Numbered from the stretch's first letter, positions 628 through 17,896 are shown. The stretch: DNA of 29,223 nucleotides from a virus (IMGVR_UViG_3300020048_006428:247178-276400), one strand, 5' to 3'. Notes: generated by a model from the letters alone, not told the origin. A program made the numbers and translations.

Positions 628-900
628 ATGCTTTCTAAAAAAATAGTTTTAAGGGATTTGTCTATTAAAATAATGGTAGGTGATTTAGTAACAGTCTTTA
701 GAAGAAAAGCAAATGGTTATCCAAAAAAGTTAAAAGACGATGAGTTATTCAAAGTTCTTAAAGTAGATGGTGATAAAATCTATTTGGATTTAAATGGATA
801 TGGACATGGTATAGCTTTTCATAAAGACTTTTTTATCACCAAAGAGTATAAAAGGGAATTAGTTTTAAAAGAATTATTGGAATGGCATTCTAAAAATTAG
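628..900 (+). CDS. Hypothetical protein (possible SH3/KOW-like barrel) with C-terminal tag KRELVLKELLE
   Basis: Operon-packed ORF; VGDLVTV...FKVLKVDGDKIYL suggests a small beta-barrel; ends in the recurrent C-terminal motif. Confidence 0.6.
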   Translation: MLSKKIVLRDLSIKIMVGDLVTVFRRKANGYPKKLKDDELFKVLKVDGDKIYLDLNGYGHGIAFHKDFFITKEYKRELVLKELLEWHSKN

Positions 901-908
901 AACATAAA

Positions 909-1163
909 ATGGAAATAAAAGATTTAAACGAAGTTGTTAAATATTTCAAGGAATATACAAGTAAAGAAGATGGTAAATACTATTTTCACAAGGAAGATGA
1001 TAATTTTAATATTATTATAACACCTGATAATAATCTTTACCAATTAAACACAGACCACGAAATTTGGGGAATAGAATTAGATACAATAGATAAACTAAGA
1101 ATTAGGTTTAAATCTTTTACTGGTGACGAATTGGAAAATTTATCTGATAGATGGTGTAATTAA
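909..1163 (+). CDS. Hypothetical protein
   Basis: 84-aa ORF in operon context with A-rich start; no recognisable motif. Confidence 0.6.
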   Translation: MEIKDLNEVVKYFKEYTSKEDGKYYFHKEDDNFNIIITPDNNLYQLNTDHEIWGIELDTIDKLRIRFKSFTGDELENLSDRWCN

Positions 1164-1174
1164 ATTTTAATAAA

Positions 1175-1618
1175 ATGTTAGCTTTCTTAAAAAGTAACTT
1201 AGGTATAATAACTGCCTTACTTGCATCTATATTATGGGGATTGAATTATGTTCTTTTTGAAAAGGTGATGAATAGAGTCAATATTTTCACTATGATGTTT
1301 TTTGAATATTTAATTTGTACAATCATAGTTGGAATATTGTGTTTAATATTTGGAAATATCAAAAGTGATTTACAAAACATTTATGATATAAAATATACAT
1401 TTATTGTTAATGTTTTTGTCTATCTTTTAGCAAGTCTAATGATAGCTTCATCAATAAAACACAGTAATGCAGTTGTGGCTGGATTGGTTGAAATAAGTTA
1501 TCCATTATTCATAATATTTTTTTCTTTTTTAATATTGAAAGATGTTAATATTGATATGAAAACAATTATTGGTGGATTACTTATATTTATTGGGGTTTTA
1601 ATAGTTTCTCTTAAGTAA
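1175..1618 (+). CDS. EamA/DMT-family small membrane transporter (single domain)
   Basis: About five hydrophobic helices; ALLASILWGLNYV at the N-terminus and AGLVEISYPLFIIFFSFLILK..IIGGLLIFIGVLIVS at the C-terminus match EamA signatures. Confidence 0.75.
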   Translation: MLAFLKSNLGIITALLASILWGLNYVLFEKVMNRVNIFTMMFFEYLICTIIVGILCLIFGNIKSDLQNIYDIKYTFIVNVFVYLLASLMIASSIKHSNAVVAGLVEISYPLFIIFFSFLILKDVNIDMKTIIGGLLIFIGVLIVSLK

Positions 1619-1634
1619 AAATAAAAATAATAAT

Positions 1635-1892
1635 ATGCCAACATTTGAAAATGAAATAGATATTGATGTAGATGATTTTATATCTTCTTGTTCAAAAGAT
1701 GAGATTAAAGAAATGATTGAGATCTTAAAAGAGGAATATAAAGAAGAAGTTAAAGAAGAAATTGGTTATATTAAACCAAAGACATTTCTTGAAGAATTAT
1801 TCTTAAACAATTTAGATAAAATTAAAAATAATTATTTATCATTAAGTCAAGAAGAAATAGAATATTTTGAAAAGATTTCTAAAAGATTTTAG
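1635..1892 (+). CDS. Hypothetical acidic protein
   Basis: 85-aa D/E-rich ORF with AATAATATG start context. Confidence 0.6.
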   Translation: MPTFENEIDIDVDDFISSCSKDEIKEMIEILKEEYKEEVKEEIGYIKPKTFLEELFLNNLDKIKNNYLSLSQEEIEYFEKISKRF

Positions 1893-1942
1893 AGGGCTTC
1901 CATAATTTAATAAATAGTTTATATAAAATTATGTATTAAATT

Positions 1943-2164
1943 ATGGAATTTAAACCAGGTGATAGTGTAATAAAAAATACAGGAGGTAATAAAATGAAAA
2001 TAATATCTTGTGATGATGTAGTTGCTGAATGTGTTTGGTATACAGAAAAATATAATCAATATATTTTTAATATAGAAGATTTAATACCATATAGTTTATA
2101 TCAAAAAGTTCTTATATCTGAAAAAAGGGAAGATTTAATAAAAAACATATTAGAATGGAAATAA
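1943..2164 (+). CDS. YodC/DUF2158-like small protein with C-terminal tag KREDLIKNILE
   Basis: FKPGDSV..TGGNKMKI...AECVWY resembles the DUF2158 pattern F-x-x-G-D-x-V-x-x-x-x-GG-x-x-M-x-V...C-x-W-F. Confidence 0.6.
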   Translation: MEFKPGDSVIKNTGGNKMKIISCDDVVAECVWYTEKYNQYIFNIEDLIPYSLYQKVLISEKREDLIKNILEWK

Positions 2165-2502
2165 AAAAAGTAACATATTCAGAAGTAGAAAAAGAATTCT
2201 ATTCAATAAAACCAGATTTATTGGATGAATATGCAACCTATTATGGATGCTTTGTTAAAGATATATTAGTTGGTATTGTTTCGTATGTTGAACATAAATC
2301 AGTTATTTATTTATGTCATGCTTTTGTAAAAGACGAATATAGAGGCAGGGGAATATACAAAATGTTATGGAATTATAGGGATGCTAAAATAAAAGAATCT
2401 GATAAAGTTGTATATGCACATTGTAATGTTGATAGTTTGAAGTATTTTATAAACAATGGCTTTTCAATAGAAAAAGCTCTTTTTAAAGTTGTTAGGGAAT
2501 AA
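2155..2502 (+). CDS. GNAT-family acetyltransferase
   Basis: Acetyl-CoA motif A FVKDEYRGRGIYKML and C-terminal N..SLKYFINNGF. Confidence 0.85.
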   Translation: MEIKKVTYSEVEKEFYSIKPDLLDEYATYYGCFVKDILVGIVSYVEHKSVIYLCHAFVKDEYRGRGIYKMLWNYRDAKIKESDKVVYAHCNVDSLKYFINNGFSIEKALFKVVRE

Positions 2503-2878
2503 TTATTCCCAATATTTTTTATCTTTATTTCGTTTAAGTATCTTTTTATATTTTAATACTTCATCAACATTTATGAATGTAATCCCATTATATTCAAATG
2601 ATTTATTATCAATTAAATCATCTATATCCATAGATAGCCAATTATTAAAGAATTCAATACCATCTGTCCTATACTCATTATTATCACCAAATGTCCACTT
2701 AGATGGTTTTATTATTACATCTAAATCATTCACATCATCTAATAATCCTTTTATAACTAAGGGCGGATCCAAAAACTGCATAATCACCTTTTTCTAAATT
2801 AAATTGTTTTAATTTATCTAATAGATATTCCAAACGTTCTCCACTTTGGAAGTTTTCAAATAATTTTAAGTATTTCAT
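2503..2878 (-). pseudogene. Frameshifted gene: N-terminal MKYLKLFENF tag fused to a minimal nucleotidyltransferase-like domain
   Basis: Manual translation from the ATG at 2878 (ATGA overlap with the upstream stop) gives MKYLKLFENFQSGERLEYLLDKLKQFNLEKGDYAVFGSA, stopping at 2735. The +1 frame continues LVIKGLLDDVNDLDVII...VLKYKKILKRNKD to 2503. Joined, these give a G-S...D-x-D Pol-beta-like signature. The shift maps to GCCC at 2761-2764. Confidence 0.65.
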
Positions 2879-3453
2879 ATATAAGTATATCCCTTTATTT
2901 TTTCTGGTAATTTTATATCAGTTTCATAATATTCATTGTAATCTTTAATTGCTTCTTCTAATAAATGCTTAACAATTTTACAATCTTTTCTTAAAAAATT
3001 ATAAGTTTCTTGATAGTCTAAATATATATCAACAGTAAAAAATATTTTTATTATTTCAATTATTGGATTTCTACCAAAATAAAACCCACCACCTATTTCT
3101 TTAGGACAACCTTCTAAACTGGTTAATTTATTATTAACGCATATAAAATTATTACCAACATAATTTGGACAACCATCTAAATTCGTTAGATTATTATCTG
3201 AACAATTAAACCAATCACCAACATAATTTGGACAACCTATTAATGTAGTTAAGTTGCAATTTGAACAATAAAAATGACCAGTTACTTTATTAAATTTAAT
3301 TGGCAATTCAGTGAATGTTTTTCCATCTAAATCAACATTACCATCAACATCAACAGATCCATCTGGATTTATTGAATATTTTTTTATGTTATATGTCCAA
3401 AGTGTATCAACAATGGATTCATTGTAACTTTCAAATAATTTTAAATATTTCAT
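2875..3453 (-). CDS. LRR-like protein with 21-aa repeats, paralogue 1, N-terminal tag MKYLKLFESY
   Basis: Three full units of V-x-x-x-F-x-C-x-x-x-x-L-T-x-L-x-G-C-P-x-x (e.g. VGDWFNCSDNNLTNLDGCPNY) plus partial units; N- and C-caps shared with 7931..8518. Confidence 0.8.
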   Translation of the reverse strand: MKYLKLFESYNESIVDTLWTYNIKKYSINPDGSVDVDGNVDLDGKTFTELPIKFNKVTGHFYCSNCNLTTLIGCPNYVGDWFNCSDNNLTNLDGCPNYVGNNFICVNNKLTSLEGCPKEIGGGFYFGRNPIIEIIKIFFTVDIYLDYQETYNFLRKDCKIVKHLLEEAIKDYNEYYETDIKLPEKIKGYTYI

Positions 3454-3460
3454 ATATTTC

Positions 3461-3470
3461 TATATATTAA
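3461..3470 (-). promoter_or_regulatory. TTAATATATA motif, putative phage late promoter
   Basis: Lies 7 nt upstream of the ATG at 3453; the same motif and spacing recur at 8526 and 9566. Confidence 0.6.
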
Positions 3471-3494
3471 TTTTTTTATTCCAAATATTATTCT

Positions 3495-3502
3495 TATCTT
3501 TG
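3495..3502 (+). promoter_or_regulatory. TATCTTTG, match to the Bacteroidota sigma70 -7 element TAnnTTTG
   Basis: In the divergent intergenic gap 21 nt upstream of the 3524 ATG; no clear -33 TTTG seen; could be chance in AT-rich DNA. Confidence 0.35.
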
Positions 3503-3523
3503 ATAAACTAAATCTATAAAAAT

Positions 3524-4402
3524 ATGAGTCTACGTAAATATGGTTTTTTAACTTGGGATAAAGATGAAGCATTGAAGAAGATTAATGCCATTGAAATTAT
3601 CAGAACAGATAATCAAATAGTTACCAAATATTTTGGGACTGTTAAGAAAGTCTGTAATGTATCAAATAAATATGAAGTATTTGATATAAAAGAGTTCTTA
3701 AAAGCTAAGATTGAACAAATTGAACAAAATTTTGACATTAGCCATTATAAATTAAAAATAAAAGGTGGTATTCAAGAACTAATCCTATTATCGGATGATG
3801 TAACTATTAATTCTTCAACTTACTATAAGTCATTTTATATACTAAATTCATCTGATAAATCCAGGCGTCTTAGTATGTATATGGGTCTATATAGAAGTGA
3901 TAATAATAGTTATATGGTTGGTTCTATTAAGAATATGTCCTTGCATAAAAAACACTATAAAGGTGTTACAGAAAAGGCAGAAGAAGCATCTTTGGTTATT
4001 GATGGTGAAACTTTTGATGAACAGATAAAGGCAATTCAATCATTAGTTGGTGAATCAGTTATGTTATCTAAAGTCCGTGATATATTAATTGATGAAGATT
4101 CAAACATAAATCACAAAAAATTTGATGCTTTTAAAAACTCATTAAGATATTCAAATTCTGATAAAGTAAAAGGTCTATCAGATACACAAGTAAAAACATT
4201 AAGCACACCATCTGAAAGATTGGAAATAGATTATAAAAATGACTTCTCAATTGACGCTTACCGAGTTTTTAATTGTTATATTCAACTATTCTATAACCAA
4301 GATTCACATGTTGTTAAAAAGGAAACTGATAAGATTCTGAAGATAACAACTTGTTTTATTAGAGATTCTAAAATAGAAGAAATTTTAAATTTCCTGGATT
4401 AA
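3524..4402 (+). CDS. DUF932-like protein with C-terminal tag IRDSKIEEIL
   Basis: VSNKYEVFD, FYILNSSDKSRRLSMYMGLYR and a downstream KKH resemble the DUF932 motifs VS..Y, L.NS.DGS....G..R and H, but the match is degenerate. Confidence 0.45.
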   Translation: MSLRKYGFLTWDKDEALKKINAIEIIRTDNQIVTKYFGTVKKVCNVSNKYEVFDIKEFLKAKIEQIEQNFDISHYKLKIKGGIQELILLSDDVTINSSTYYKSFYILNSSDKSRRLSMYMGLYRSDNNSYMVGSIKNMSLHKKHYKGVTEKAEEASLVIDGETFDEQIKAIQSLVGESVMLSKVRDILIDEDSNINHKKFDAFKNSLRYSNSDKVKGLSDTQVKTLSTPSERLEIDYKNDFSIDAYRVFNCYIQLFYNQDSHVVKKETDKILKITTCFIRDSKIEEILNFLD

Positions 4403-4414
4403 ATAAATATACAA

Positions 4415-4558
4415 ATGAACAAATTCAAATATATTACTACAACCTTAAATAGTATGAAAAAATATTACAGTAACCAAATACCATTACCTAAAAATAGTAT
4501 TTCTAAACTTAGAATAATTTTAGCAAAATTAAATGTTTTGAAAAAAGATGGAAATTAA
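4415..4558 (+). CDS. Micro-ORF 1 (47 aa) with degenerate C-terminal module SISKLRIILAKL
   Basis: Manual translation: MNKFKYITTTLNSMKKYYSNQIPLPKNSISKLRIILAKLNVLKKDGN*; overlaps the next start. Confidence 0.5.
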   Translation: MNKFKYITTTLNSMKKYYSNQIPLPKNSISKLRIILAKLNVLKKDGN

Positions 4559-4634
4559 ATGGTCAATTGGAAAATTAAAAAGAGTTTCAAAAATTAGAAA
4601 AATTTTAGAAAAATTAAAACAATATGGATCCTAA
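4548..4634 (+). CDS. Micro-ORF 2 (28 aa), cationic amphipathic peptide
   Basis: MEIKWSIGKLKRVSKIRKILEKLKQYGS*; overlaps both neighbours by 11 nt. Confidence 0.55.
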   Translation: MEIKWSIGKLKRVSKIRKILEKLKQYGS

Positions 4635-4734
4635 AGCAATTGATGAACTATTAAATGAACACGATAACTGGATAGATAGATATAAAATCCTATATAGAAT
4701 TTCAAAAATCAGAAAAATTTTAGAAAAAATATGA
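4624..4734 (+). CDS. Micro-ORF 3 (36 aa)
   Basis: MDPKAIDELLNEHDNWIDRYKILYRISKIRKILEKI*; ATGA overlap with the next ORF. Confidence 0.55.
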   Translation: MDPKAIDELLNEHDNWIDRYKILYRISKIRKILEKI

Positions 4735-4826
4735 AATACTTAAAATTATTTGAAAACTTTAATCAATCAGAAATTAATAGAATTTCAAAAATTAGAAAAA
4801 TTTTAGAAAAATTAGAAAAATTTTAG
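4731..4826 (+). CDS. Micro-ORF 4 (31 aa): N-terminal tag fused directly to the C-terminal module
   Basis: MKYLKLFENFNQSEINRISKIRKILEKLEKF*. A 20-bp tandem duplication (4791-4810 = 4811-4830) changes the ending from KLKQYG* to KLEKF*. Confidence 0.55.
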   Translation: MKYLKLFENFNQSEINRISKIRKILEKLEKF

Positions 4827-4841
4827 AAAAATTAAAACAAT

Positions 4842-5009
4842 ATGGGTGAAAATAATATGTTTGATTATGACTATTGGAAAGCACAATTTATAATTGAATC
4901 TGATAAGTGGACTTGCTCGCGAATGAGTGGGAGGCTGATGAGCTGGAAAGATCAATATAAAAATAGTAATAGAATTTCAAAAATCAGAAAAATTTTAAAC
5001 AAACTTTAA
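4842..5009 (+). CDS. Micro-ORF 5 (55 aa; alternative start 4857)
   Basis: MGENNMFDYDYWKAQFIIESDKWTCSRMSGRLMSWKDQYKNSNRISKIRKILNKL*; contains a GC-rich segment at 4907-4950. Confidence 0.55.
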   Translation: MGENNMFDYDYWKAQFIIESDKWTCSRMSGRLMSWKDQYKNSNRISKIRKILNKL

Positions 5010-5027
5010 TTTTTCTATATAATTTCT

Positions 5028-5768
5028 ATGAAAGAATTAATTTTAGAAAAATTAAAATGCTTTGAACAAGATGATAAATTTTCATTCAATCCCAAGTATC
5101 ATAAATATACATATGATGGTGAAGTTTTAAAATCAGTAACAACATTGGTTAGTGAATTACATATTAAATTTGATTTTGAAGGAAAATCTAAAAAGAAAGC
5201 CGAAGAAGTCGGTGTTGACCAAAATTGGATAAAAGCAGAATGGTATGAAACCAATAGATATGCCAATGAAATTGGGACAGCCACACACCAATGGATAGAA
5301 GATTATTATAATCAAAAGTGGAATCCATTACCAACCAATCCAGATCTTATACATAGAATAAATAAATTCAATAAGATATACTGTAAATACTTACATAAAT
5401 TAACACCTGTTAAATTTGAAGTAAGGCTTTTTTCTAAAAAATGGAAGTTAGCTGGAACATTAGATGGTTTATTCCTTATGAATGATAAACTTTATATTTT
5501 AGATTATAAAACAAATAAAGTATTTAAAGATGATAATCATGAAGATGGTAGATGGAGAAAATTACTACCACCATTCAATTCTTTTTATGAAAACCACCAC
5601 AATGAATACTCAATACAATTATGTCTTTATGCCTTGATTTTAGAAGAATGGGGTATAAATGTATCAAGTGCTTATATAATTTATATTGGTCCTGATGACG
5701 AAGATGCAAAATTTGTAAAAGTAAAAGATATGCGTGAATATATTAAACAATATTTTGAAAGCCTCTAA
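5028..5768 (+). CDS. PD-(D/E)XK exonuclease, RecB/Cas4-like phage type
   Basis: HKYTYDG..LKSVTT, GTATH, FEVRLFSKKWKLAGTLDGL, ILDYKT and YSIQLCLYALIL motifs. Confidence 0.85.
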   Translation: MKELILEKLKCFEQDDKFSFNPKYHKYTYDGEVLKSVTTLVSELHIKFDFEGKSKKKAEEVGVDQNWIKAEWYETNRYANEIGTATHQWIEDYYNQKWNPLPTNPDLIHRINKFNKIYCKYLHKLTPVKFEVRLFSKKWKLAGTLDGLFLMNDKLYILDYKTNKVFKDDNHEDGRWRKLLPPFNSFYENHHNEYSIQLCLYALILEEWGINVSSAYIIYIGPDDEDAKFVKVKDMREYIKQYFESL

Positions 5769-5785
5769 TAATTAGAGGCTTTTTT
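5758..5785 (+). terminator. Intrinsic terminator between convergent genes
   Basis: AAAGCCTCTA-ATAAT-TAGAGGCTTT followed by a T-run. Confidence 0.75.
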
Positions 5786-5787
5786 AT

Positions 5788-6159
5788 TTACATTTTTACA
5801 ATAAAAAAATGATTTAATGGACATCCACCACCATAGGAATCATATCTAATCTGATCAAAACTTGGCCATATCTTAAGAATACTTTCAAAAGGTTTTACCC
5901 CATTGCCAGGAAAGGAAAGTCCTAAATTATCACCAACTGTAAATATTTCACCATCTGCCTTTCTTTTAACTGAATATATTTCAATATTATCATCTTCTGT
6001 TCTATCAGCATTATTTACACATATTGAAATAAGTCTATCAGTTGGATCTACAATATCATCACCATCTTTAATAGATAGTATATCAAAATATCTTAGAAAT
6101 TCCGTTTTAGCATCTGGTTCTGATTCTTCAAAAATTTTATAATGTTTTAAATATTTCAT
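5788..6159 (-). CDS. Hypothetical protein with N-terminal tag MKYLKHYKIFEES
   Basis: 123-aa ORF at the end of a minus-strand operon; tag-like N-terminus. Confidence 0.65.
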   Translation of the reverse strand: MKYLKHYKIFEESEPDAKTEFLRYFDILSIKDGDDIVDPTDRLISICVNNADRTEDDNIEIYSVKRKADGEIFTVGDNLGLSFPGNGVKPFESILKIWPSFDQIRYDSYGGGCPLNHFFIVKM

Positions 6160-6174
6160 ATAAGTCTATTTTTT

Positions 6175-6882
6175 TTAAGCATAAGAATATGTGAATGATT
6201 TTATAAAATCAATCGCTAAACTATATTTATCTGATAGTGAATAAGTATTATCATCAATCATTAGATATGAATATGTTGGTGCGTATATTTCAGACCAATG
6301 TGTTGAATATGTTGGTGTTATTAAATTATTAACAGAATATGTATATGATGTTATACAGTCATATATTTTATTATTATAAATCATATGATTTCCAATATTA
6401 TAAGCAATTGGCTTTCTTCTATCATCTATAAATTGTGGTATAGAAGCACTTGTAGAACTTGGAATACCAACCATAGATTCTACATCAATATATAATTCAA
6501 TATATTTTTTATTTATTAATGATACTTCATTTTCTATTTCTTTTATATCACCTAAATAGTGATTATTAGTTTTATCATAGAAATGAAAACCTATTTGATA
6601 TACATTTTTTGTATTAAATAAATTATTTAATACTAATGCTGTATTTGTTATTGTATTTAATCTAACAATATCATATGAGTTTTTCTTAAAATCATCAATC
6701 GTTTTAAATTTATCTATATCAATCTTATATTTGGCAGACATAACATCTTCCAATAGATTATATTGTCCATTACTAATAAACTCATCAATTAATAAATAAT
6801 AATCAAATGTAGCATCAATTCCTTTTTGTGCTAATTTGTTTATTTTCTTATACATTTTGTCGTATTCTCTTCTATAATTCAT
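6175..6882 (-). CDS. Hypothetical protein with a C-terminal CBM5/12-like module
   Basis: AYNIGNHMIYNNKIYDCITSYT..P..STHW resembles the Y..G..V.Y.G..Y.C...H...P...W pattern of carbohydrate-binding module family 5/12. Confidence 0.5.
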   Translation of the reverse strand: MNYRREYDKMYKKINKLAQKGIDATFDYYLLIDEFISNGQYNLLEDVMSAKYKIDIDKFKTIDDFKKNSYDIVRLNTITNTALVLNNLFNTKNVYQIGFHFYDKTNNHYLGDIKEIENEVSLINKKYIELYIDVESMVGIPSSTSASIPQFIDDRRKPIAYNIGNHMIYNNKIYDCITSYTYSVNNLITPTYSTHWSEIYAPTYSYLMIDDNTYSLSDKYSLAIDFIKSFTYSYA

Positions 6883-7934
6883 TATTTACCTAATATTTTA
6901 TCAATTTGATCAATTTTGGCTTTATTATTATCATCAGAAATAAATTCGGCAAAATTGGCAACTTTAGACATTTTTTCTTCATCATTTTTAATTTTCCCTA
7001 ATGCGTCTGCTGCTTTTTTAGCATTGTCACCCATATCATTTTCAGCAACACCTATAATATCTTTATAACCCTTTTTAATGGTTGGTGAATTGTTTTTATC
7101 CAAAAATACTACACTTTGATCAGTATCATTTTGATCTAAACTATTTATTACTTTAACACCAACTATATCTTGTTGTTCAGTTGGTTTTTTGTTTTTATCA
7201 TAGTCATTTTTATCTTTATCTTTAAGTAAATATATAACAGGTGTTTTCTTATCAAAATATTCTTTTAATTTATCATAAGTCATTTCATCAGCATTTTCAC
7301 CTGATTTAGATTTAAGTTCTTTATAAAGTTTATCAATTTCTTCTTCTGTAATATCTTTTCTTAATTGATTTTTAATTTCCTTTTGAAAATTATCTAAGAA
7401 AGTAGATGCTATCTTCTTTTTTGCATTTATATCTTTTCCTTTATTTACTTCAATTATATAGTTAGATTTTGAATATTTAAATTTTATATCCTTTTTTAAT
7501 AATCCTTTTTGTGGATCAATTAAACCAACTAATCCAACAAAATCCATTTCTTTATTACCCATTAATATAGCTTTTGATAGTTCTATAACTGCTTTGGATT
7601 TACCTTTTCCTAAAGCAGTTTCAATATCCTTTCCTATATTATTTGATAGTTGGACTAAATTAATAGAAAAATTATCTACAATTCCTAATATAGATGTTTC
7701 ATCTTTTATATTAATTATTTCTTTTTGTGCCGAGTCTATTGCTTGATCTAAATTAGTTGTTATTACATTTACTAATGAATTTGGATCATCTTCTTTAAAC
7801 ATCTTTTTAAAATCATTGGCTAAGTCTTTAAATGGCCCAGCAAACATATTAGCAAGTTTTCCCAAAGCACCCTTTAAAGCAGGTAAAATGAATTCTTCAT
7901 TTAATTTAAATTCTTCGTATTTTTTAATTTTCAT
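6882..7934 (-). CDS. Hypothetical helical protein with N-terminal tag MKIKKYEEFKLNEE; candidate internal virion protein
   Basis: 350 aa; ATGA-coupled to LRR paralogue 2; amphipathic segment ILPALKGALGKLANMF follows the tag. Confidence 0.65.
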   Translation of the reverse strand: MKIKKYEEFKLNEEFILPALKGALGKLANMFAGPFKDLANDFKKMFKEDDPNSLVNVITTNLDQAIDSAQKEIINIKDETSILGIVDNFSINLVQLSNNIGKDIETALGKGKSKAVIELSKAILMGNKEMDFVGLVGLIDPQKGLLKKDIKFKYSKSNYIIEVNKGKDINAKKKIASTFLDNFQKEIKNQLRKDITEEEIDKLYKELKSKSGENADEMTYDKLKEYFDKKTPVIYLLKDKDKNDYDKNKKPTEQQDIVGVKVINSLDQNDTDQSVVFLDKNNSPTIKKGYKDIIGVAENDMGDNAKKAADALGKIKNDEEKMSKVANFAEFISDDNNKAKIDQIDKILGK

Positions 7935-8518
7935 ATGTAGGTATATCCTTCTATTTTTTCTGGTAGTTCTACCTGTTTATCATAATATTCATTGTAATCT
8001 TTAATAACTTCTTCTAAAAGATGTTTAACTATTTTACAATCTTTTCTTAAAAAGTTATATGTTTCTTGATAGTTTAAATATATTTTAACATTATAATCAA
8101 ATAATCGTATGACCCAATGTGTTATTGGATTTTCATGTGGAAAAAAATCACCACCTATTATTTTTGGATATCCATCCAAACTAGTTAATTCATTATCTTC
8201 CATATCAAAATCACCAACAACTTCTTTTGGACCACCTATTAAATTTGTTAATTCATTACCTATACAATAAAAATCATCACCTACATAATTTGGACTATTT
8301 TCTAATGTAGTTAATTCATTTCCACAACAATCAAACCAACCTGAAACTTTATTAAATTTAAGTGGCATTTTTGTTAATTTTTTACTATTTAAATCAACAT
8401 CACCATCTACATCAATTGATCCATCTGAATTAATTATATAGTTTTGTATACCATAATATTCACAAATATCATCAATTTGTGATTGATTGAAGTTTTCAAA
8501 TAATTTTAAGTATTTCAT
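7931..8518 (-). CDS. LRR-like protein with 21-aa repeats, paralogue 2, N-terminal tag MKYLKLFENF
   Basis: Units VSGWFDCCGNELTTLENSPNY / VGDDFYCIGNELTNLIGGPKE / VVGDFDMEDNELTSLDGYPKI; C-cap YQETYNFLRKDCKIVKHLLEE is shared with paralogue 1. Confidence 0.8.
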   Translation of the reverse strand: MKYLKLFENFNQSQIDDICEYYGIQNYIINSDGSIDVDGDVDLNSKKLTKMPLKFNKVSGWFDCCGNELTTLENSPNYVGDDFYCIGNELTNLIGGPKEVVGDFDMEDNELTSLDGYPKIIGGDFFPHENPITHWVIRLFDYNVKIYLNYQETYNFLRKDCKIVKHLLEEVIKDYNEYYDKQVELPEKIEGYTYI

Positions 8519-8525
8519 ATATACT

Positions 8526-8535
8526 TATATATTAA
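8526..8535 (-). promoter_or_regulatory. TTAATATATA motif, putative late promoter
   Basis: 7 nt upstream of the ATG at 8518. Confidence 0.6.
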
Positions 8536-8556
8536 ATAAACAAACCTAAAATTTAT

Positions 8557-9558
8557 TTATATAATATACTTAAATTTATAACCATTCCTTGACTTACATT
8601 CCTCTATATACTTAGATATAGTAGATCTTTTCATACTAAAATGATTAGATGCTTCTGTCAGTGAGTTAAATTCCATATATTCATTTTTATTTTCATTATA
8701 TGCAGAAACTTTAAACCCTTTTGTCTTTTTATTAAAAAAATTATTATAATCCACATCACTAATTTCAGATTCATATATCCACGCAAAATCACCACAAGTT
8801 TTCCTTTTTTTATTAAGACACAACCATATATTTTTGAAGCTTAAATTGTTTTCCCTTGATGCACACATTAAATTATCATAATTAGTAAAAATACCATACT
8901 TATCTATCCGATAAATCTTTTGTCCTAATTTTGTTGTTTTAGATATCCTAATTTTAAGTTTTTCTTCAATATTTGTATCATCTTGAAAGAAAAATGTATA
9001 ACCCCTATTGAAATTCATCCCCCCATTTAATATATCAGATATATTTTTATATGATACATTCAATTTCTCACTGGCTCTTCTTGAATTATTAAAATATTCA
9101 ATTAAATTCTCATTAATATCATAACATACTATTTTTTTACCGCTATTGTATGTAGCTATAAAAATTTTTTCTTTAGTTTTCTCTGACATTTTTCTACCTC
9201 TACTCTTTTCACCAATTTTTCTCCTAGTTTCGGCTGATGGATTTTGTAATCCATCACCACCTTCTGTCATATTTAATAAATTTACACCCAAATATCTAAA
9301 TAATCTAATATAGTGTATTTCCCAATAATCAATTTCAGATTCAAATTCATCTATTATAAAAAATTCTGGTTTCAAATTATCCAAAAATAAATGATGTTTC
9401 CACATAGATAGTCTTGTAGCATAATGGTTTTTATCTTTACTACAGTGGTTTTTATACCTATTTTTAGGATTTTTTGTTTTTCCAATATAAACAACCTCAT
9501 TTGTAATTGGGTGTGATAAACAATAAATATAATTTTTCATAGTCGGTAGTTTCTTCAT
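8557..9558 (-). mobile_element. Free-standing GIY-YIG homing endonuclease gene with NUMOD3 and three NUMOD1-like DNA-binding repeats
   Basis: YIY..VYIGKT..R..H and E...I...LLNMTEGG catalytic domain; SAETRRKIGEKSRGRKMSEKTKEKI (NUMOD3); three I/V..yd....F.s...As repeats (NUMOD1). No flanking intron or split host gene is evident. Confidence 0.9.
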
Positions 9559-9565
9559 TTAATTT

Positions 9566-9574
9566 TATATATTA
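9566..9574 (-). promoter_or_regulatory. TAATATATA motif, putative late promoter
   Basis: 7 nt upstream of the endonuclease ATG at 9558. Confidence 0.55.
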
Positions 9575-9619
9575 TTAAACTTTTATTACCCTTTCTAATA
9601 AAATAATAAAAAATAAAAT

Positions 9620-10165
9620 ATGAATTTACAAGAATATATTAATTTATCAGAAAAAACATTATCTACTGAATTTCATTCAGATAAAAAGATGGAAAATATT
9701 TTACATGCTGCAATTGGTCTTGCTACAGAAATTGATGAGCTACTTGATAACTATGAAAATGAAATGGATCCAATAAACCTCTTAGAGGAAGTTGGTGATA
9801 TTTATTGGTATTTAGCAATATTTTATAGGGAATATCCTGGTTCTGAAAAATTTAATCAATTTTTAGAAAAAAAATCACCTGAAAAAATAGTTATGGATAT
9901 ACTAAAATCTATACTAAAAATTCAAGATATGATAAAGAAGAAACTCTTCTACAATAAAAATATTGATAGTGAATCACTAATTGGATTAGTAATTTCAATT
10001 AATTCTAATTTATCAATATATTTAGAAAAATATAACTTAAATATAGAAGATGTTTGGTGTAAAAATATCAATAAATTAAAAGCTCGTTATGGAGATAAGT
10101 TTTCATCTGAAAAAGCTATAAATAGAGATTTAGTAAAAGAAAAAAATATTTTAGAAAATGAATAA
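9620..10165 (+). CDS. MazG-like nucleotide pyrophosphohydrolase (all-alpha NTP-PPase)
   Basis: LHAAIGLATEIDELLD...LLEEVGDIYWYLA and C-terminal NINKLKARYGDKFS..A..RD. Confidence 0.85.
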   Translation: MNLQEYINLSEKTLSTEFHSDKKMENILHAAIGLATEIDELLDNYENEMDPINLLEEVGDIYWYLAIFYREYPGSEKFNQFLEKKSPEKIVMDILKSILKIQDMIKKKLFYNKNIDSESLIGLVISINSNLSIYLEKYNLNIEDVWCKNINKLKARYGDKFSSEKAINRDLVKEKNILENE

Positions 10166-10514
10166 TTTAGTACAATTAATGCAAACTATTTCAGTTAGAA
10201 ATAAACTACTTTCTAATGATTTGAAATCAATGAAAAATGAATTAGAGGCTATTTTTGAAAATAAAGTTTTAGAAGCTGGCGTAACTACACCAGGTTATTT
10301 CCATTACTTCTTACCCACTTTAGATAAATATCAATATAATAGAATTATAACTTCATATCATATGTCAGAAGAACAATATAGTGATGGTACAACTGGACAA
10401 AATATTAAAATACCAATAGTTGATGTTATGTCAAATGGTAATTCAATTAGGATTTTTATAACACCAAGAACATTTTTAAGAAATCTAAAATTAGAACATT
10501 TATTAAATGAATAA
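10158..10514 (+). CDS. Hypothetical protein with C-terminal tag LRNLKLEHLL
   Basis: Overlaps both neighbours by 8 nt. Confidence 0.6.
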   Translation: MNNLVQLMQTISVRNKLLSNDLKSMKNELEAIFENKVLEAGVTTPGYFHYFLPTLDKYQYNRIITSYHMSEEQYSDGTTGQNIKIPIVDVMSNGNSIRIFITPRTFLRNLKLEHLLNE

Positions 10515-11277
10515 AATATATTTAGGTGATTGTTTGGAATTGATGAATGATATACCAGATAAAAGCATAGACCTTATATGTTGTGATTTACCATATGGAA
10601 CTACTAAATGTTCTTGGGATTCAATTATACCATTAGATAAATTATGGGAGCATTATAAAAGAATTATCAAGAACAATGGTGCGATAATATTATTTGCACA
10701 AACACCATTTGATAAAGTGTTAGGGTGTTCAAACTTAGAATGGTTAAGATATGAATGGATATGGGAAAAAACTCAAGCAACAGGATTTTTAAATGCAAAA
10801 AAAATGCCCCTAAAATCACATGAAAATATATTAGTTTTTTATAAAAATTTACCAACATATAATCCACAAAAAACATTTGGTCATAAGCCAATAAATAAAT
10901 ATACTAAAAAAGCATCAGTTCAAAATAAAACCGAAGTATATGGTAAAGTTAAAACTGATGTTAGTGGTGGTGGTGAAACAGATAGATATCCAAGAAGTGT
11001 TCAGATATTTTCATCTGATAAACAAAAAAACAAATTAAATGGTACAATTCACCCTACGCAAAAACCATTAAAACTATTAGAATATCTAATAATGACATAT
11101 AGTAATGAAGGTGATGTTGTATTAGATAATTGTGCTGGATCATCAACAACAGCAATTGCTTGTATTAATACAAATAGAAATTGGATTATGATGGAAAAGG
11201 AAGAAAAGTATTTTGAATTATCAAAAGGAAGAATTACAGAACATTTTAGGGATAAACAAATTAAATCAATAATATGA
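10507..11277 (+). CDS. Site-specific DNA methyltransferase (N6-adenine/N4-cytosine, beta class) with appended C-terminal tag FRDKQIKSII
   Basis: Catalytic motif DLPYG (DPPY variant) near the N-terminus; HPTQKP and VVLDNCAGSSTT SAM-binding region near the C-terminus. Confidence 0.9.
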   Translation: MNKIYLGDCLELMNDIPDKSIDLICCDLPYGTTKCSWDSIIPLDKLWEHYKRIIKNNGAIILFAQTPFDKVLGCSNLEWLRYEWIWEKTQATGFLNAKKMPLKSHENILVFYKNLPTYNPQKTFGHKPINKYTKKASVQNKTEVYGKVKTDVSGGGETDRYPRSVQIFSSDKQKNKLNGTIHPTQKPLKLLEYLIMTYSNEGDVVLDNCAGSSTTAIACINTNRNWIMMEKEEKYFELSKGRITEHFRDKQIKSII

Positions 11278-11351
11278 ATTGGACTAAACTCCAAGAATTA
11301 CTGCCGACTCAGCGATTTGGTTGGAAAGAAAATAATATGAATTGGACTAAA
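11268..11351 (+). repeat. 21-bp direct repeat AATAATATGAATTGGACTAAA flanking a 42-bp unique insert
   Basis: Exact copies at 11268-11288 and 11331-11351 (63-bp period, in frame); the insert is 19/42 G+C. Confidence 0.9.
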
Positions 11352-11723
11352 AATATTTTATTAAGTGAAACTGGTTTGGATTTTGATTTTCTTTATATTA
11401 AATCTAAAAAGGTATTATTTAATTATCATAGTCTTTGTGAAACAATAAGAATTGTAGAACTTAACAATGGAAAAATAAATTTTTTCTATTATAGTGGTTT
11501 AATTCACAAAAATAATTTCTTCTATAAAAATAAGCTAAGTTATAAATATTTATGTTTTCGATTTTATAAACTTTTTAATAATTTTTATCTAAAAGATGAA
11601 AGAATTGATGACTTCACAAACAGTGATAAATTCAAAAAATATATGGAAAAATATCCATTTTTAGTGGAACATTTTCCTATATTTAAAAGAGAAGAAAAAC
11701 TAAAACAGTTATTAGATGAATAA
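11274..11723 (+). CDS. Hypothetical protein with a duplicated start (MNWTK twice) and C-terminal tag KREEKLKQLL
   Basis: ATGA-coupled to the methyltransferase; alternative start at 11337. Confidence 0.6.
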   Translation: MNWTKLQELLPTQRFGWKENNMNWTKNILLSETGLDFDFLYIKSKKVLFNYHSLCETIRIVELNNGKINFFYYSGLIHKNNFFYKNKLSYKYLCFRFYKLFNNFYLKDERIDDFTNSDKFKKYMEKYPFLVEHFPIFKREEKLKQLLDE

Positions 11724-12048
11724 AGTTATTTATAAAACAAAATTTGAAATATTACCAACAAGGAAAATATCAGCAGATAGGGAAAATAAATTGAATCTAC
11801 TTGAAATAGATTGTTTCTTTTCAGATTCACAAATTAAATTACCAGAAGTTGATAGCTTATTCGTCTTAAATGGTAATAAATATAAAGTTGAAGGGTTTAA
11901 ATATAGTCTCTCAAAAGAAGATGATGAAACAATATATGAAACAATAATTGTACTAATGGATTTTTTAAATAGACAAACACCTGATACTGGTGCTAAATAT
12001 AAACCTTATATGGATATATATTTAAATCCAAATAAAAAAATAATATAA
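11716..12048 (+). CDS. Hypothetical protein with an internal tag-like segment DRENKLNLL
   Basis: Operon-coupled 110-aa ORF. Confidence 0.6.
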   Translation: MNKVIYKTKFEILPTRKISADRENKLNLLEIDCFFSDSQIKLPEVDSLFVLNGNKYKVEGFKYSLSKEDDETIYETIIVLMDFLNRQTPDTGAKYKPYMDIYLNPNKKII

Positions 12049-13230: not shown

Positions 13231-13788
13231 ATGGCTAAATTAATATGTATTTTAGGTGCGCCTGCATCTGGGAAATCTACTTTGGCTTCTGATGTTCACA
13301 CTGAACTAAAGAAGCTGGGTAAGAATTCAATCTATATAACGGAAGCCGCTACAGACTTTATCGCAGAATTCGGAATACCAAATAGTCCAATAGATCAATT
13401 AGTTATATTCTATCAACAATTAAATAGAGAAAGAATGTATTTGGATTCTAAGGATTATATAATATGTGATTCATCTGGAATTTTAAATTATTTCTATTTT
13501 AGGGGTTTATTTGGTAACAAATTATCTAATAAAGATATAGCAGTTATCAATCACTTACAAAAGGAAATACTTAAAACTATCAATCAGTGGTCAAATATAT
13601 TTTATATACCACCAATTTTAAATAATAAATCATCTAATGATGGAATAAGATATCACAATGATGATCAAATAGTTAAATTAGATCGTTGGATAAAATCTTA
13701 TTTGGAATTGGAAAATATTGAACACGATGATTTGTCTGATGTTAAAATTAATGATAGGGCAAATGTAATTATACAAAAAATATTATAA
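13231..13788 (+). CDS. P-loop NTPase/kinase, AAA_28 (NadR/Ttd14-like)
   Basis: Walker A GAPASGKST, EAATDFI, IICDSS, and a late DGIRYH segment. Confidence 0.75.
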   Translation: MAKLICILGAPASGKSTLASDVHTELKKLGKNSIYITEAATDFIAEFGIPNSPIDQLVIFYQQLNRERMYLDSKDYIICDSSGILNYFYFRGLFGNKLSNKDIAVINHLQKEILKTINQWSNIFYIPPILNNKSSNDGIRYHNDDQIVKLDRWIKSYLELENIEHDDLSDVKINDRANVIIQKIL

Positions 13789-13790
13789 TA

Positions 13791-13823
13791 AAAAAGACTC
13801 TTATATTTTATAAGAGTCTTTTT
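13791..13823. terminator. Bidirectional intrinsic terminator
   Basis: AAAAAGACTCTTATA-TTT-TATAAGAGTCTTTTT, a perfect 15-bp stem between convergent genes. Confidence 0.85.
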
Positions 13824-13825
13824 GT

Positions 13826-15605: not shown

Positions 15606-17324
15606 ATGAACTTAACCGAAATTAGTTTTAACCAAGTTAAAACAGAAATAGAATTATACTTAAAACAAGAACATTCTAAAGCTAATATGTTATACAGCAT
15701 AAGTTCACCTTATGGTCAAATATTGTCTGTTTTAGAAAATCTATTTCAATTGTCTATTTTATATCTTAAAAATAGTATAAAACAATTTGACTTATCAGAT
15801 GTAAATTCCAATAATGCAAGGGTAATTAGAAATGCTGCTATATTTGCTGGTCATATACCTGGTAGAAATGTTAGTGCTACAGGAACATTAAAAGTAAACT
15901 TAAAAACATCATCCGATATATCAAAAGATATTCCTGGTAGTAGAATAACTTTAACAAACAGATCATTAATGAAAAACAAAACAAATGGTTTAGAATATTC
16001 GTTAAATTTAGGATCAGATTCAGTTGCTTATAAAATAACAAGCAATTCACAATTTTTTATTTCAATCATACAAGGCAAATGGCTTAGAAAAAATTTCACA
16101 GGAACAGGTCAGCAAAATCAAACATATAATGTTGGATTAAGAAGTAAAACAAAAGATGTTGAAAATTTCAATTATGAAATATTAGTTAATGGTGAGTTTT
16201 GGACAACAAAGAAACATTTATATGATTTGCTACCAGATGAAAAGGCTTGTGTCGTTAGAACAGGTTTTAATAGTGGAATTGATATAATATTTGGAAATGG
16301 TGGATTCGGTGCTATACCAAAAATTGGATCTGTTATTGAAGTAAATTATTTATTGAGTGATGGTTCAAATGGATCCATATTTAGAAGAACTATTAATGAT
16401 TGGACATTTGTTGATCCAATTGTTGATGGATTTGGTAATTCAATAGATTTATCTGATTTATTTGATGTTACCATAAATACTGATATAAACTTTGGTGCAG
16501 ACAAAGAAACAACTGCTTTTACCAAAAACTTATTACCTATTTCAAGTAATAATTTTGTATTAGGTTTACCACAACAATATGCTTATCAAATAAAAAAATT
16601 AGGTGTTTTTTCACATGTTAATGCTTATGAAAAATTTGAAGTTATCTATATTGTAGCTACACCAAATATAAAATTATTTAAAAATCAAAATTCAAACTAC
16701 TTTACAATTGATAAAAGAGCTTTTGAATTAGATTCATATGAAAAATCAAAGATAGATCAATATTTAAGAATTGGTGGTAATATAATGCTTACAAAACGCT
16801 ACCAAATTGATTCACCTGTCTTGTCTTATTATGTTATGAATGTTTTCATAATGACATATTCTGATGCACTGGATGATAGTGTAAATGCGCAAATTTATGA
16901 AAAGGTATCTGAATATTTCTTAGATTTTAATAGATTAGGTAGAGTGCCTAAAAATGAATTAATTGTTGAATTATCAACAATTTCAGAAATACATTCAATT
17001 GATATATCATTTGTAAGTAAAAAGAATGAAGATTATCACAGAGCACAAATATTAAAAGATGTAAATAAGAAAAATGATTTTGCTTCAAAAGAAGCTTTGA
17101 AGTTAGAAAGACCAAATCCAAATTATAATCCAGACACTATGATTGGATTGGATCCAGTTTTAGGTGATATAGTATTTGAACCAAGTGAAATTCCAATAAT
17201 AAGAGGTGGTTGGTATGATAGAAATACAATTTATTATTCTGACGATATAGAAGACAAAGGGTTGAAATCAATTAATATAATTAAAAAAGGAACAGTTGAT
17301 CCAACTAACAAACAGAAAATATAA
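15606..17324 (+). CDS. Baseplate wedge subunit, T4 gp6-like (baseplate J superfamily)
   Basis: N-terminal ISFNQVKTEIELYL..SPYGQIL..ARVIRNAAIFAGHIPGRNVSATGTL and central IFGNGGFGAIPKIGSVIEVNYLLSDG match gp6-type motifs (FGDG..G..P..G..I.V.YL). Confidence 0.8.
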   Translation: MNLTEISFNQVKTEIELYLKQEHSKANMLYSISSPYGQILSVLENLFQLSILYLKNSIKQFDLSDVNSNNARVIRNAAIFAGHIPGRNVSATGTLKVNLKTSSDISKDIPGSRITLTNRSLMKNKTNGLEYSLNLGSDSVAYKITSNSQFFISIIQGKWLRKNFTGTGQQNQTYNVGLRSKTKDVENFNYEILVNGEFWTTKKHLYDLLPDEKACVVRTGFNSGIDIIFGNGGFGAIPKIGSVIEVNYLLSDGSNGSIFRRTINDWTFVDPIVDGFGNSIDLSDLFDVTINTDINFGADKETTAFTKNLLPISSNNFVLGLPQQYAYQIKKLGVFSHVNAYEKFEVIYIVATPNIKLFKNQNSNYFTIDKRAFELDSYEKSKIDQYLRIGGNIMLTKRYQIDSPVLSYYVMNVFIMTYSDALDDSVNAQIYEKVSEYFLDFNRLGRVPKNELIVELSTISEIHSIDISFVSKKNEDYHRAQILKDVNKKNDFASKEALKLERPNPNYNPDTMIGLDPVLGDIVFEPSEIPIIRGGWYDRNTIYYSDDIEDKGLKSINIIKKGTVDPTNKQKI

Positions 17325-17328
17325 AATA

Positions 17329-17357
17329 AAATGCAATCAATTTAATTGATTGCATTT
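17329..17357. terminator. Hairpin between convergent genes
   Basis: AAATGCAATCAAT-TTA-ATTGATTGCATTT, 13-bp stem. Confidence 0.75.
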
Positions 17358-17359
17358 AT

Positions 17360-17896
17360 TCATAAATTTTTAATAAAATCTTTAAAAGTCATTATTATTT
17401 TTTCATTTATATAAGAATTTAATATATGTTGGCTATTAATGAAATAACTTTCTATATCTAAATTGTAGCCATCATCATTTCTTTTATAAATTTCTTTAAT
17501 TATTGTTTTGTAATTATCATTTGATGGTGGATGTTTTAGATAATTAAATTTAATATGTTGTCCACTTTCATTCCAAATTAAGTACCACAATAATACAAAA
17601 CCATCATTTAAATGTATATGATATATACCAAATAATTCAGAAGTGTTTGGATTTTTAAGTTCAATTCCATTTGTTGGTTTAGGATTTATTGTTGGTGGAT
17701 TTATTGAATCACATACTAACATCTGGTGTATTGTATATAATATTATTTTAATATTTGATTCATTAGATAAATCTATTAATTTGGCTATTTCCAACTTATT
17801 TATATCAAATGATATAAATTTAAATGTGTTTATAAAATTAATAAACCAAGCATTTTCATAATTTTTGAATGGTTTTGGGATTTTTGCAATATTCAT
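17360..17896 (-). CDS. Possible RelE/YafQ-fold protein
   Basis: ELFGIYHIHLNDGFVLLWY...IKFNYLKHP aligns by eye with YafQ-type G.RECHI.PD.LLIY...L.L.R.G.H; the match is weak. Confidence 0.4.
   Translation of the reverse strand: MNIAKIPKPFKNYENAWFINFINTFKFISFDINKLEIAKLIDLSNESNIKIILYTIHQMLVCDSINPPTINPKPTNGIELKNPNTSELFGIYHIHLNDGFVLLWYLIWNESGQHIKFNYLKHPPSNDNYKTIIKEIYKRNDDGYNLDIESYFINSQHILNSYINEKIIMTFKDFIKNL

Follow-up and report, generated by a model that had tools for sequence, protein, structure and literature searches.

A portable C-terminal helical tag on proteins of unrelated folds in a Mahaphage-type huge phage and its relatives

Tagged genes at the end of the contig

In this study, a short C-terminal tag on plus-strand proteins was analyzed in a stretch of viral DNA of 29,223 nucleotides (IMGVR_UViG_3300020048_006428:247178-276400), called the window. 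The window is the terminal 29 kb of a 276.4-kb virus record (G000), which has 25% G+C and a CheckV completeness of 47% and is a fragment of a Mahaphage-type huge phage. The baseplate wedge protein of G000 was 64–67% identical to its counterparts in LR745206 and LR756502, two uncultured phages of 634–642 kb. Both belong to a set of genomes larger than 634 kb, which was assigned to the Mahaphage clade, with Bacteroidetes hosts (PMC7162821). Open reading frames (ORFs) were obtained by crude greedy longest-ORF calling, with 375 ORFs and 92% coding in G000, and all gene counts are approximate.

The core pattern of the tag was R-x3-[IL]-x2-[IL]-[IL], ending no more than 10 residues from the C-terminus. 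The fuller consensus was h-R-[DE]-x-K-[IL]-x-x-[IL]-L-[EDN], followed by 0–3 residues and the stop. The window contained nine tagged proteins, against 0.13–0.2 expected. The seven C-terminal instances listed by the first-pass annotation were all found at their genes, fitted the core pattern and lay 0–6 residues from the stop (Table 1). The RISKIRKIL copies were indeed C-terminal; as near-identical copies of a 42-nucleotide repeat, they count as one instance and not three. The supposed internal instance DRENKLNLL in the gene at 11716 had the wrong spacing and was dropped, and the label "DUF932-like" given to one carrier was not confirmed by Pfam.

Table 1. Positions of tag cores in the window and of proteostasis genes in two tag-bearing genomes
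Feature	Genome	Position	Strand	Context
RELVLKELL core	G000 window	853–879	+	90-residue protein 628–900, 6 residues before the stop; position weight matrix score 20.9
REDLIKNIL core	G000 window	2126–2152	+	73-residue YodC-like protein 1943–2164, end of terminal helix
RDSKIEEIL core	G000 window	4361–4387	+	292-residue protein 3524–4402
Micro-ORF array	G000 window	4492–5008	+	47, 36, 31 and 55 residues, and others, each ending R/K-ISKIRKIL; 42-nucleotide direct repeat
RISKIRKIL cores	G000 window	4696–4722, 4779–4805, 4971–4997	+	micro-ORFs
RNLKLEHLL core	G000 window	10479–10505	+	118-residue protein 10158–10514
RDKQIKSII core	G000 window	11248–11274	+	N6/N4 DNA methyltransferase 10507–11277, very end, beyond the Pfam domain
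REEKLKQLL core	G000 window	11688–11714	+	149-residue protein 11274–11723
Proteostasis module	G000	69712–69993	−	
Proteostasis module	LR756502	58607–59281, 112095–112763, 205052–205333, 440544–442667		

The micro-ORF array was tiled by six copies of the direct repeat, with 71–83% identity and the consensus AGAATTTCAAAAATYAGAAAAATTTTAGAAAAA. The 31-residue ORF of this array (4731–4826) consisted of nothing but an N-terminal tag, MKYLKLFENF, and the C-terminal tag. The orthologues of the 292-residue protein (48% identity) ended in VRN[SA]VLE[AS]LGI, which is a dialect of the tag.

Two similar C-termini were rejected as tags. The end of the protein 41–622, IRDRIKEL, belongs to a genuine Pfam UVR domain and has another spacing; the end of the MazG-like protein, NRDLVKEKNIL, has the wrong spacing and was excluded from the counts. 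The UVR domain (PF02151) was also rejected as the identity of the tag: no scanned tag carrier matched it, and only the untagged protein 41–622 did.

Enrichment of the tag and its conservation as a peptide

The core pattern occurred 57 times in G000, and 26 of the occurrences were C-terminal, about one in 14 of the 375 proteins. The rate per position was 6.3 × 10−3 at C-termini and 4.0 × 10−4 internally, a 16-fold difference. The pattern had been defined on the window, and therefore the rest of the contig was a fair independent test. Outside the window 17 proteins were tagged, against 1.5 expected from the internal rate and 1.3 from shuffling the last 25 residues of each protein (Poisson p = 6.6 × 10−13). 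The maximum in 500 such shuffles was 5. With a weight matrix, 28 matches above 14 bits were found in G000, 26 of them C-terminal, while the shuffled proteome gave 0.6. The enrichment in the 642-kb genome LR756502 had a p of about 1 × 10−131. The comparison with shuffled C-termini proposed by the first-pass annotation thus gave a clear excess. The C-terminal tag exists, and it is present on more proteins than were first listed.

Six additional genomes were compared whole. The tag was carried by 109–171 of 1010 proteins in LR756502 (26–40-fold over the internal rate), by 80–87 of 976 in LR756504 (636 kb; 19–33-fold) and by 40–55 of 650 in the IMG/VR record G001 (483 kb; 19–29-fold). The tagged share reached about one protein in six among the relatives. 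Three outgroup or nested genomes had at most 1.3% of proteins tagged and were near background: LR756501 (735 kb; 5–10 tagged, 2–3-fold), LR756500 (462 kb; 4 tagged, 2–3-fold) and Tenacibaculum phage pT24 (235 kb; 3–4 tagged, 5–8-fold on these 3–4 proteins).

The form of the tag differed between lineages. The main clade had R-[DEN]-x-K-[IL]-[ND]-x-[IL]-[L/G]-(I), LR756504 had [WY]-T-L-x-E-[YH]-R-K-x-[KI]-I-x-[DEN]-L-[LI]-stop, and the record G014 had R-K-x-K-I-K-E-I-[LF]. At position +1 the main clade had D, E or N, and LR756504 and G014 had K; the endings were ..LGI, ..IL-x or ..LL-stop. The tag is clade-wide, with lineage-specific dialects.

A six-frame search was carried out with the strict form R-[DEN]-x-K-[IL]-x-x-[IL]-[IL]. 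All 17 matches in G000 and 62 of 69 in LR756502 lay in the gene frame. The tag Arg was encoded by AGA, AGG, CGT and CGA, up to nine codons were used at the aliphatic positions, where I and L were exchanged freely, and the information was concentrated at codon positions 1 and 2. Position 0 was Arg in 14/14 and 53/56 cases and Lys in none, while Lys is 3.5 times commoner in the proteome. In 21 orthologue pairs of LR756502 and G001, a comparison partly conditioned on the pattern, the median body identity was 39%, the six constrained tag positions were 76% identical and the three free positions 37% identical. Where a constrained position had the same residue in both genomes, the codons differed in 45% of cases. 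These sequence comparisons indicate that selection acts on the tag as a peptide, because the strict motif is frame-specific, its codons are varied and Arg is never replaced by Lys. The contrast of synonymous and non-synonymous change, suggested earlier as the way to separate peptide from RNA function, showed residues kept and codons varied, and pointed to peptide function.

Two explanations would do without such a peptide. The proteome is rich in I (10%), K (10%) and L (8.5%), and the pattern was set post hoc; AT-rich coding, which favours K, I, L, N and E, could have produced the tag by chance or through composition. This explanation has practically no probability left: it is refuted by the excess outside the window, repeated in LR756502, and by the background level in similarly AT-rich relatives, namely LR756500 (24% G+C), LR756501 and pT24. 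The first-pass annotation had offered as its own alternative a nucleotide-level element that provides an A-rich initiation region; such an element, translated incidentally, could also couple the next gene or act as a promoter. The next same-strand gene started within 15 nucleotides for 62–67% of tagged genes, compared with 28–41% of untagged genes, in G000 and LR756502; the overlap ATGAATAA was common to several gene junctions, and the RISKIRKIL copies are DNA repeats. However, the strict motif hardly occurred in intergenic DNA or in any of the other five frames, and conservation lay at codon positions 1 and 2 amid many synonymous and I/L codon changes. Moreover, 25–45% of tagged genes had no close same-strand gene downstream, some were followed by terminator-like hairpins, and the register of the motif was fixed to its own stop and not to the next start. 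Frame specificity, codon variety and downstream-gene statistics led to the rejection of a nucleotide element, which we regard as very improbable.

Carriers of the tag and the terminal helix

The carrier bodies were mutually unrelated by BLAST except for two paralogue groups, in line with the earlier claim of unrelated carriers. The domains found among the G000 carriers were an N6/N4 methyltransferase, a metallophosphatase and DUF6011. In LR756502, Pfam gave no match for 95 of the 100 largest carriers; the others matched riboflavin kinase, NUDIX, BtpA and DUF6011. The C-tagged proteins were small, with a median of 111–114 residues, and their genes were clustered along the genome.

The methyltransferase and the YodC-like protein were compared with their homologues. 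The Pfam domain of the methyltransferase stops at residue 240 of 256, and nearly all of 120 homologues (59–100% identity) ended just past ...KRI/KRL. The alignment thus bore out the expectation that the tag is an addition to this enzyme. Two other methyltransferase homologues (P0025 and P0027) bore their own, independent versions of the tag. The YodC-like protein and four homologues (59–63% identity) consisted of the barrel and about 20 extra residues ending in the conserved tag. In the AlphaFold2 model of the YodC-like protein, the tag ended a 23-residue terminal helix (residues 50–72) after the beta-barrel; in that of the methyltransferase it lay in a helix (233–255) that continued the last helix past the domain end. 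The tag formed the last 2.5 turns of the terminal helix, with falling confidence. Judged from these alignments, the tag is an add-on to both folds.

LR756502 and LR756504 had 163 common orthologues, and none was tagged in both. Therefore, the tag persists while its carriers get replaced. The proposal of a portable peptide-level signal on unrelated proteins was supported by the frame specificity, the codon variation, the unrelated carriers and the addition of the tag to homologues.

A strong internal copy of the tag was observed in one orthologous pair (G000 106802–107206 and LR756502 315773–316270), 37 and 53 residues before the C-terminus. The helix can thus be retained internally before a C-terminal extension. 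Another side observation concerned the start of the 149-residue tagged ORF of the window, which reads MNWTK, 21 residues, and MNWTK again (11274–11360); the gene start is duplicated in frame, with an insert between the two copies.

The tag-bearing genomes also carry an N-terminal tag of the MKYLKLFENF type. LR756502 had 97 C-tagged and 96 N-tagged proteins and none with both (p = 7 × 10−5). The earlier statement that no N-tagged gene ends in the C-tag held strictly in LR756502; in the window it failed for the 31-residue ORF with both tags and held otherwise. The concerted change of dialect and the exclusion between the two tags in LR756502 suggest two separate address systems. No description of two such address systems in phages was found in the searched papers.

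A possible early-gene class of the tagged genes was probed through the TAnnTTTG box (Bacteroidota type) upstream of transcription units, with mixed results: the box was more frequent at C-tagged than at N-tagged genes in two genomes, and at C-tagged genes of LR756504 it was depleted relative to other genes. Short G+C-containing hairpins with T-runs, resembling intrinsic terminators, were present in the window at 5769–5790, 13789–13825 and 17325–17360, directly 3' of the stops of the genes 5028–5768, 13231–13788 and 15606–17324. A homing-endonuclease gene with GIY-YIG and NUMOD domains (8557–9558, minus strand) lay between an N-tagged gene of the leucine-rich-repeat type and the MazG-like gene.

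Docking to a common partner, the Clp module and other readings

The tag may be described as a portable C-terminal helix of about 10–15 residues, carried by numerous accessory proteins, which are small, turn over fast and have unrelated folds. In a helical-wheel projection, K3, I7, R0, I4, L8 and D1 would lie on one face, while the variable positions 2, 5 and 6 would be exposed. Because the six conserved residues lie on one helix face and the other three are free, the tag was read as a short docking motif, which would serve as an address label gathering the carriers at one common partner. The sequence pattern makes such docking rather probable, and we infer a single reader for the tag. Since the carriers of a genome shift dialect together, a lineage-specific reader is probable, either one encoded by the phage or a host factor that varies among hosts. 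No description of the tag was found in full-text literature searches, and the huge-phage paper mentions neither Clp nor a C-terminal motif (PMC7162821).

A partner was sought among the proteostasis genes. The tag-bearing genomes encode two strong ClpP, ClpS, GrpE, FKBP and a ClpC without N-domain, which has an M-domain and the VGF loop for ClpP docking. The tagless genome LR756501 has only a ClpB-like ATPase, with Clp_N and without the VGF loop. The panel was widened to 18 IMG/VR records, where matches to a hidden Markov model of the tag stood in for direct counts; this model had 0 matches in 1.4 Mb of tagless genomes. Among the near-complete genomes, ClpS and/or a strong ClpP was present in all nine that bear the tag and in none of the six tagless ones. 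In the baseplate tree, the tag and the Clp traits appeared at one node (support 97/94) and were jointly lost in a nested subclade of LR756501 and G013. The association between tag and Clp across genomes is suggestive but weak. Speculatively, a Clp link is the most likely specific reading: the tag would link its carriers to the phage ClpS, the N-domain-less ClpC with its VGF loop and the two ClpP, as a degradation or timing label or as an SspB-like tether. The Clp module is the best candidate for this partner.

Several observations weigh against this interpretation. The Clp link amounts to about one joint gain and one joint loss and is confounded by phylogeny. In LR756502, the phyletic profile of the tag, with presence in tag-bearing and absence from tagless genomes, is shared by 34–38 of 1010 genes, among them ClpS, GrpE, FKBP, RNase R and a Zn-protease-like protein. 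In G014, tags and ClpS occur without ClpP or ClpC; G012 has tags and ClpP without ClpS, and G007 has ClpP, ClpC and ClpS but 0 matches to the tag model. The tag is also unlike classical Clp degrons, with 0–10 residues to the end and polar or charged last residues, and about 20% of its strong matches are internal. Finally, module shuffling could also distribute a shared sequence that serves self-association, without a common partner. Strict dependence on Clp was rejected, as it is contradicted by G014, G012 and possibly G007.

G007 (IMGVR_UViG_3300020045_008999, 597 kb) is nested in the tag-bearing clade, where it has either lost the tag naturally or uses an unrecognized dialect. Two conserved LR756502 proteins were tried as readers and rejected in the wider panel: a protein of 160 residues was missing from the tag-bearing G014 and G003, and one of 84 residues had no match anywhere.

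The tag was compared with known address peptides. C-terminal degrons and tethers of the Clp system include ssrA (..LAA-COOH), the MuA C-terminus (RRKKAI-COOH) and the SspB XB peptide (LRVVK-COOH). Like them, the tag is a short, portable C-terminal peptide; degrons are read by one proteolytic machine, and the tag-bearing phages encode ClpS, ClpC and ClpP. However, the tag shows no sequence resemblance to these peptides: it is a 2.5-turn helix with an invariant Arg and polar termini, and it is sometimes internal. An ssrA/ClpX-type C-motif 1, which requires a fixed extreme C-terminus, non-polar last residues and a free carboxylate, was rejected, since the distance to the stop is 0–10 residues (mode 1–2) and the trailing residues are mostly E, D, N or K. 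The MuA-type C-motif 2 and the SspB XB tether are short basic-aliphatic C-terminal peptides that bind the ClpX N-domain. By its sequence the tag appears basic and aliphatic; the phage unfoldase is ClpC-like and has no N-domain.

The encapsulation peptides of bacterial microcompartments (PduP, PduD, EutC) and the cargo-loading peptides of encapsulins are short terminal peptides on unrelated enzymes that dock to one shell protein. The tag resembles the microcompartment peptides in being an amphipathic helix with similar hydrophobic spacing (..I-x-x-I-L..), and in the AlphaFold2 models of the YodC-like protein and the methyltransferase it extends from the fold as a terminal amphipathic helix, as in that class. 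It differs from both types by the invariant Arg, the acidic +1 and the Lys at +3, and by its presence on 7–17% of the proteome. No match to the microcompartment shell family PF00936 was found in G000, LR756502, LR756504, G001 or G014, while the control genomes matched. The encapsulin shell PF04454 had no match in tag-bearing genomes, and the tag consensus is unrelated to the G-S-L type.

At the N-terminus of T4 internal proteins stands a capsid-targeting sequence, which the prohead protease cleaves. It is, like the tag, a short phage-specific address peptide on unrelated proteins, and the N-terminal tag, present on a comparable number of proteins in the tag-bearing genomes, is similar to it. 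In contrast, the tag is C-terminal, never occurs on N-tagged proteins in LR756502 and marks a different set. The PRANC/F-box-like module at the C-terminus of poxvirus ankyrin proteins is folded, comprises about 40–50 residues and binds host Skp1. It is also a constant C-terminal module, carried by a large number of fast-evolving viral proteins whose bodies vary, and it links its carriers to a proteolytic system; the tag, however, belongs to a bacterial virus and is a helix of 10 residues. PIP-box and other clamp-binding motifs are often C-terminal short linear motifs with h-x-x-h-h spacing, as is the tag, and the PIP-box brings many clients to one hub (PMC6881253). Unlike the PIP-box Q-x-x-[ILM]-x-x-[FY]-[FY], the tag has Arg instead of Gln at position 0, I or L at positions 7–8 and no aromatic pair, and its carriers are mostly orphans and not DNA enzymes.

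Two further explanations accept the peptide and dispense with a common partner or with portability. The tag could be a portable self-association (oligomerization) helix, spread from gene to gene by recombination, by which carriers dimerize or bundle with no dedicated reader. Consistent with this are the AlphaFold2 models, where the tag ends a protruding terminal helix as a one-sided amphipathic segment, together with the very small size of the carriers, the presence of tag-only micro-ORFs and the failure of phyletic profiling to yield a reader. Yet 9–10 residues are too short for a stable coiled coil, and self-association needs neither an invariant Arg that is never Lys, with an acidic +1 and Lys at +3, on unrelated proteins, nor a concerted change of dialect over about 100 proteins of one genome; this explanation was considered unlikely. 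The carriers could instead descend from one or a few paralogous families that expanded and diverged extremely, with the helix as the best-kept remnant and not a transferable module. The tagged genes do form arrays (24 adjacent tagged pairs, against 9 expected), two paralogue groups were detected, and a common origin is possible for the 95% of carriers that are orphans. The tag is, however, present on distinct folds (N6/N4 methyltransferase, metallophosphatase, NUDIX, riboflavin kinase, YodC-type barrel and DUF6011), and homologues of these families elsewhere lack it. Common descent of the carriers was therefore considered quite improbable.

The docking interpretation would have consequences for the biology of these phages. 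If one helix addresses 7–17% of the proteins of a huge phage to a single partner, it would organize functional "dark matter", with 95% of carriers lacking a known domain. On the scale of the proteome, it is doubtful that the phage ClpS and ClpC–ClpP receive through the tag, in each genome, upwards of 100 small accessory proteins with rapid replacement, or the host targets bound by their variable bodies. If true, such addressing would give bacterial viruses an equivalent of the F-box/PRANC-type substrate adaptors, or would clear early proteins in a programmed manner. The tag could flag accessory and host-takeover genes in metagenomic phage genomes, and it may provide an experimental handle for the hub, stability and localization.

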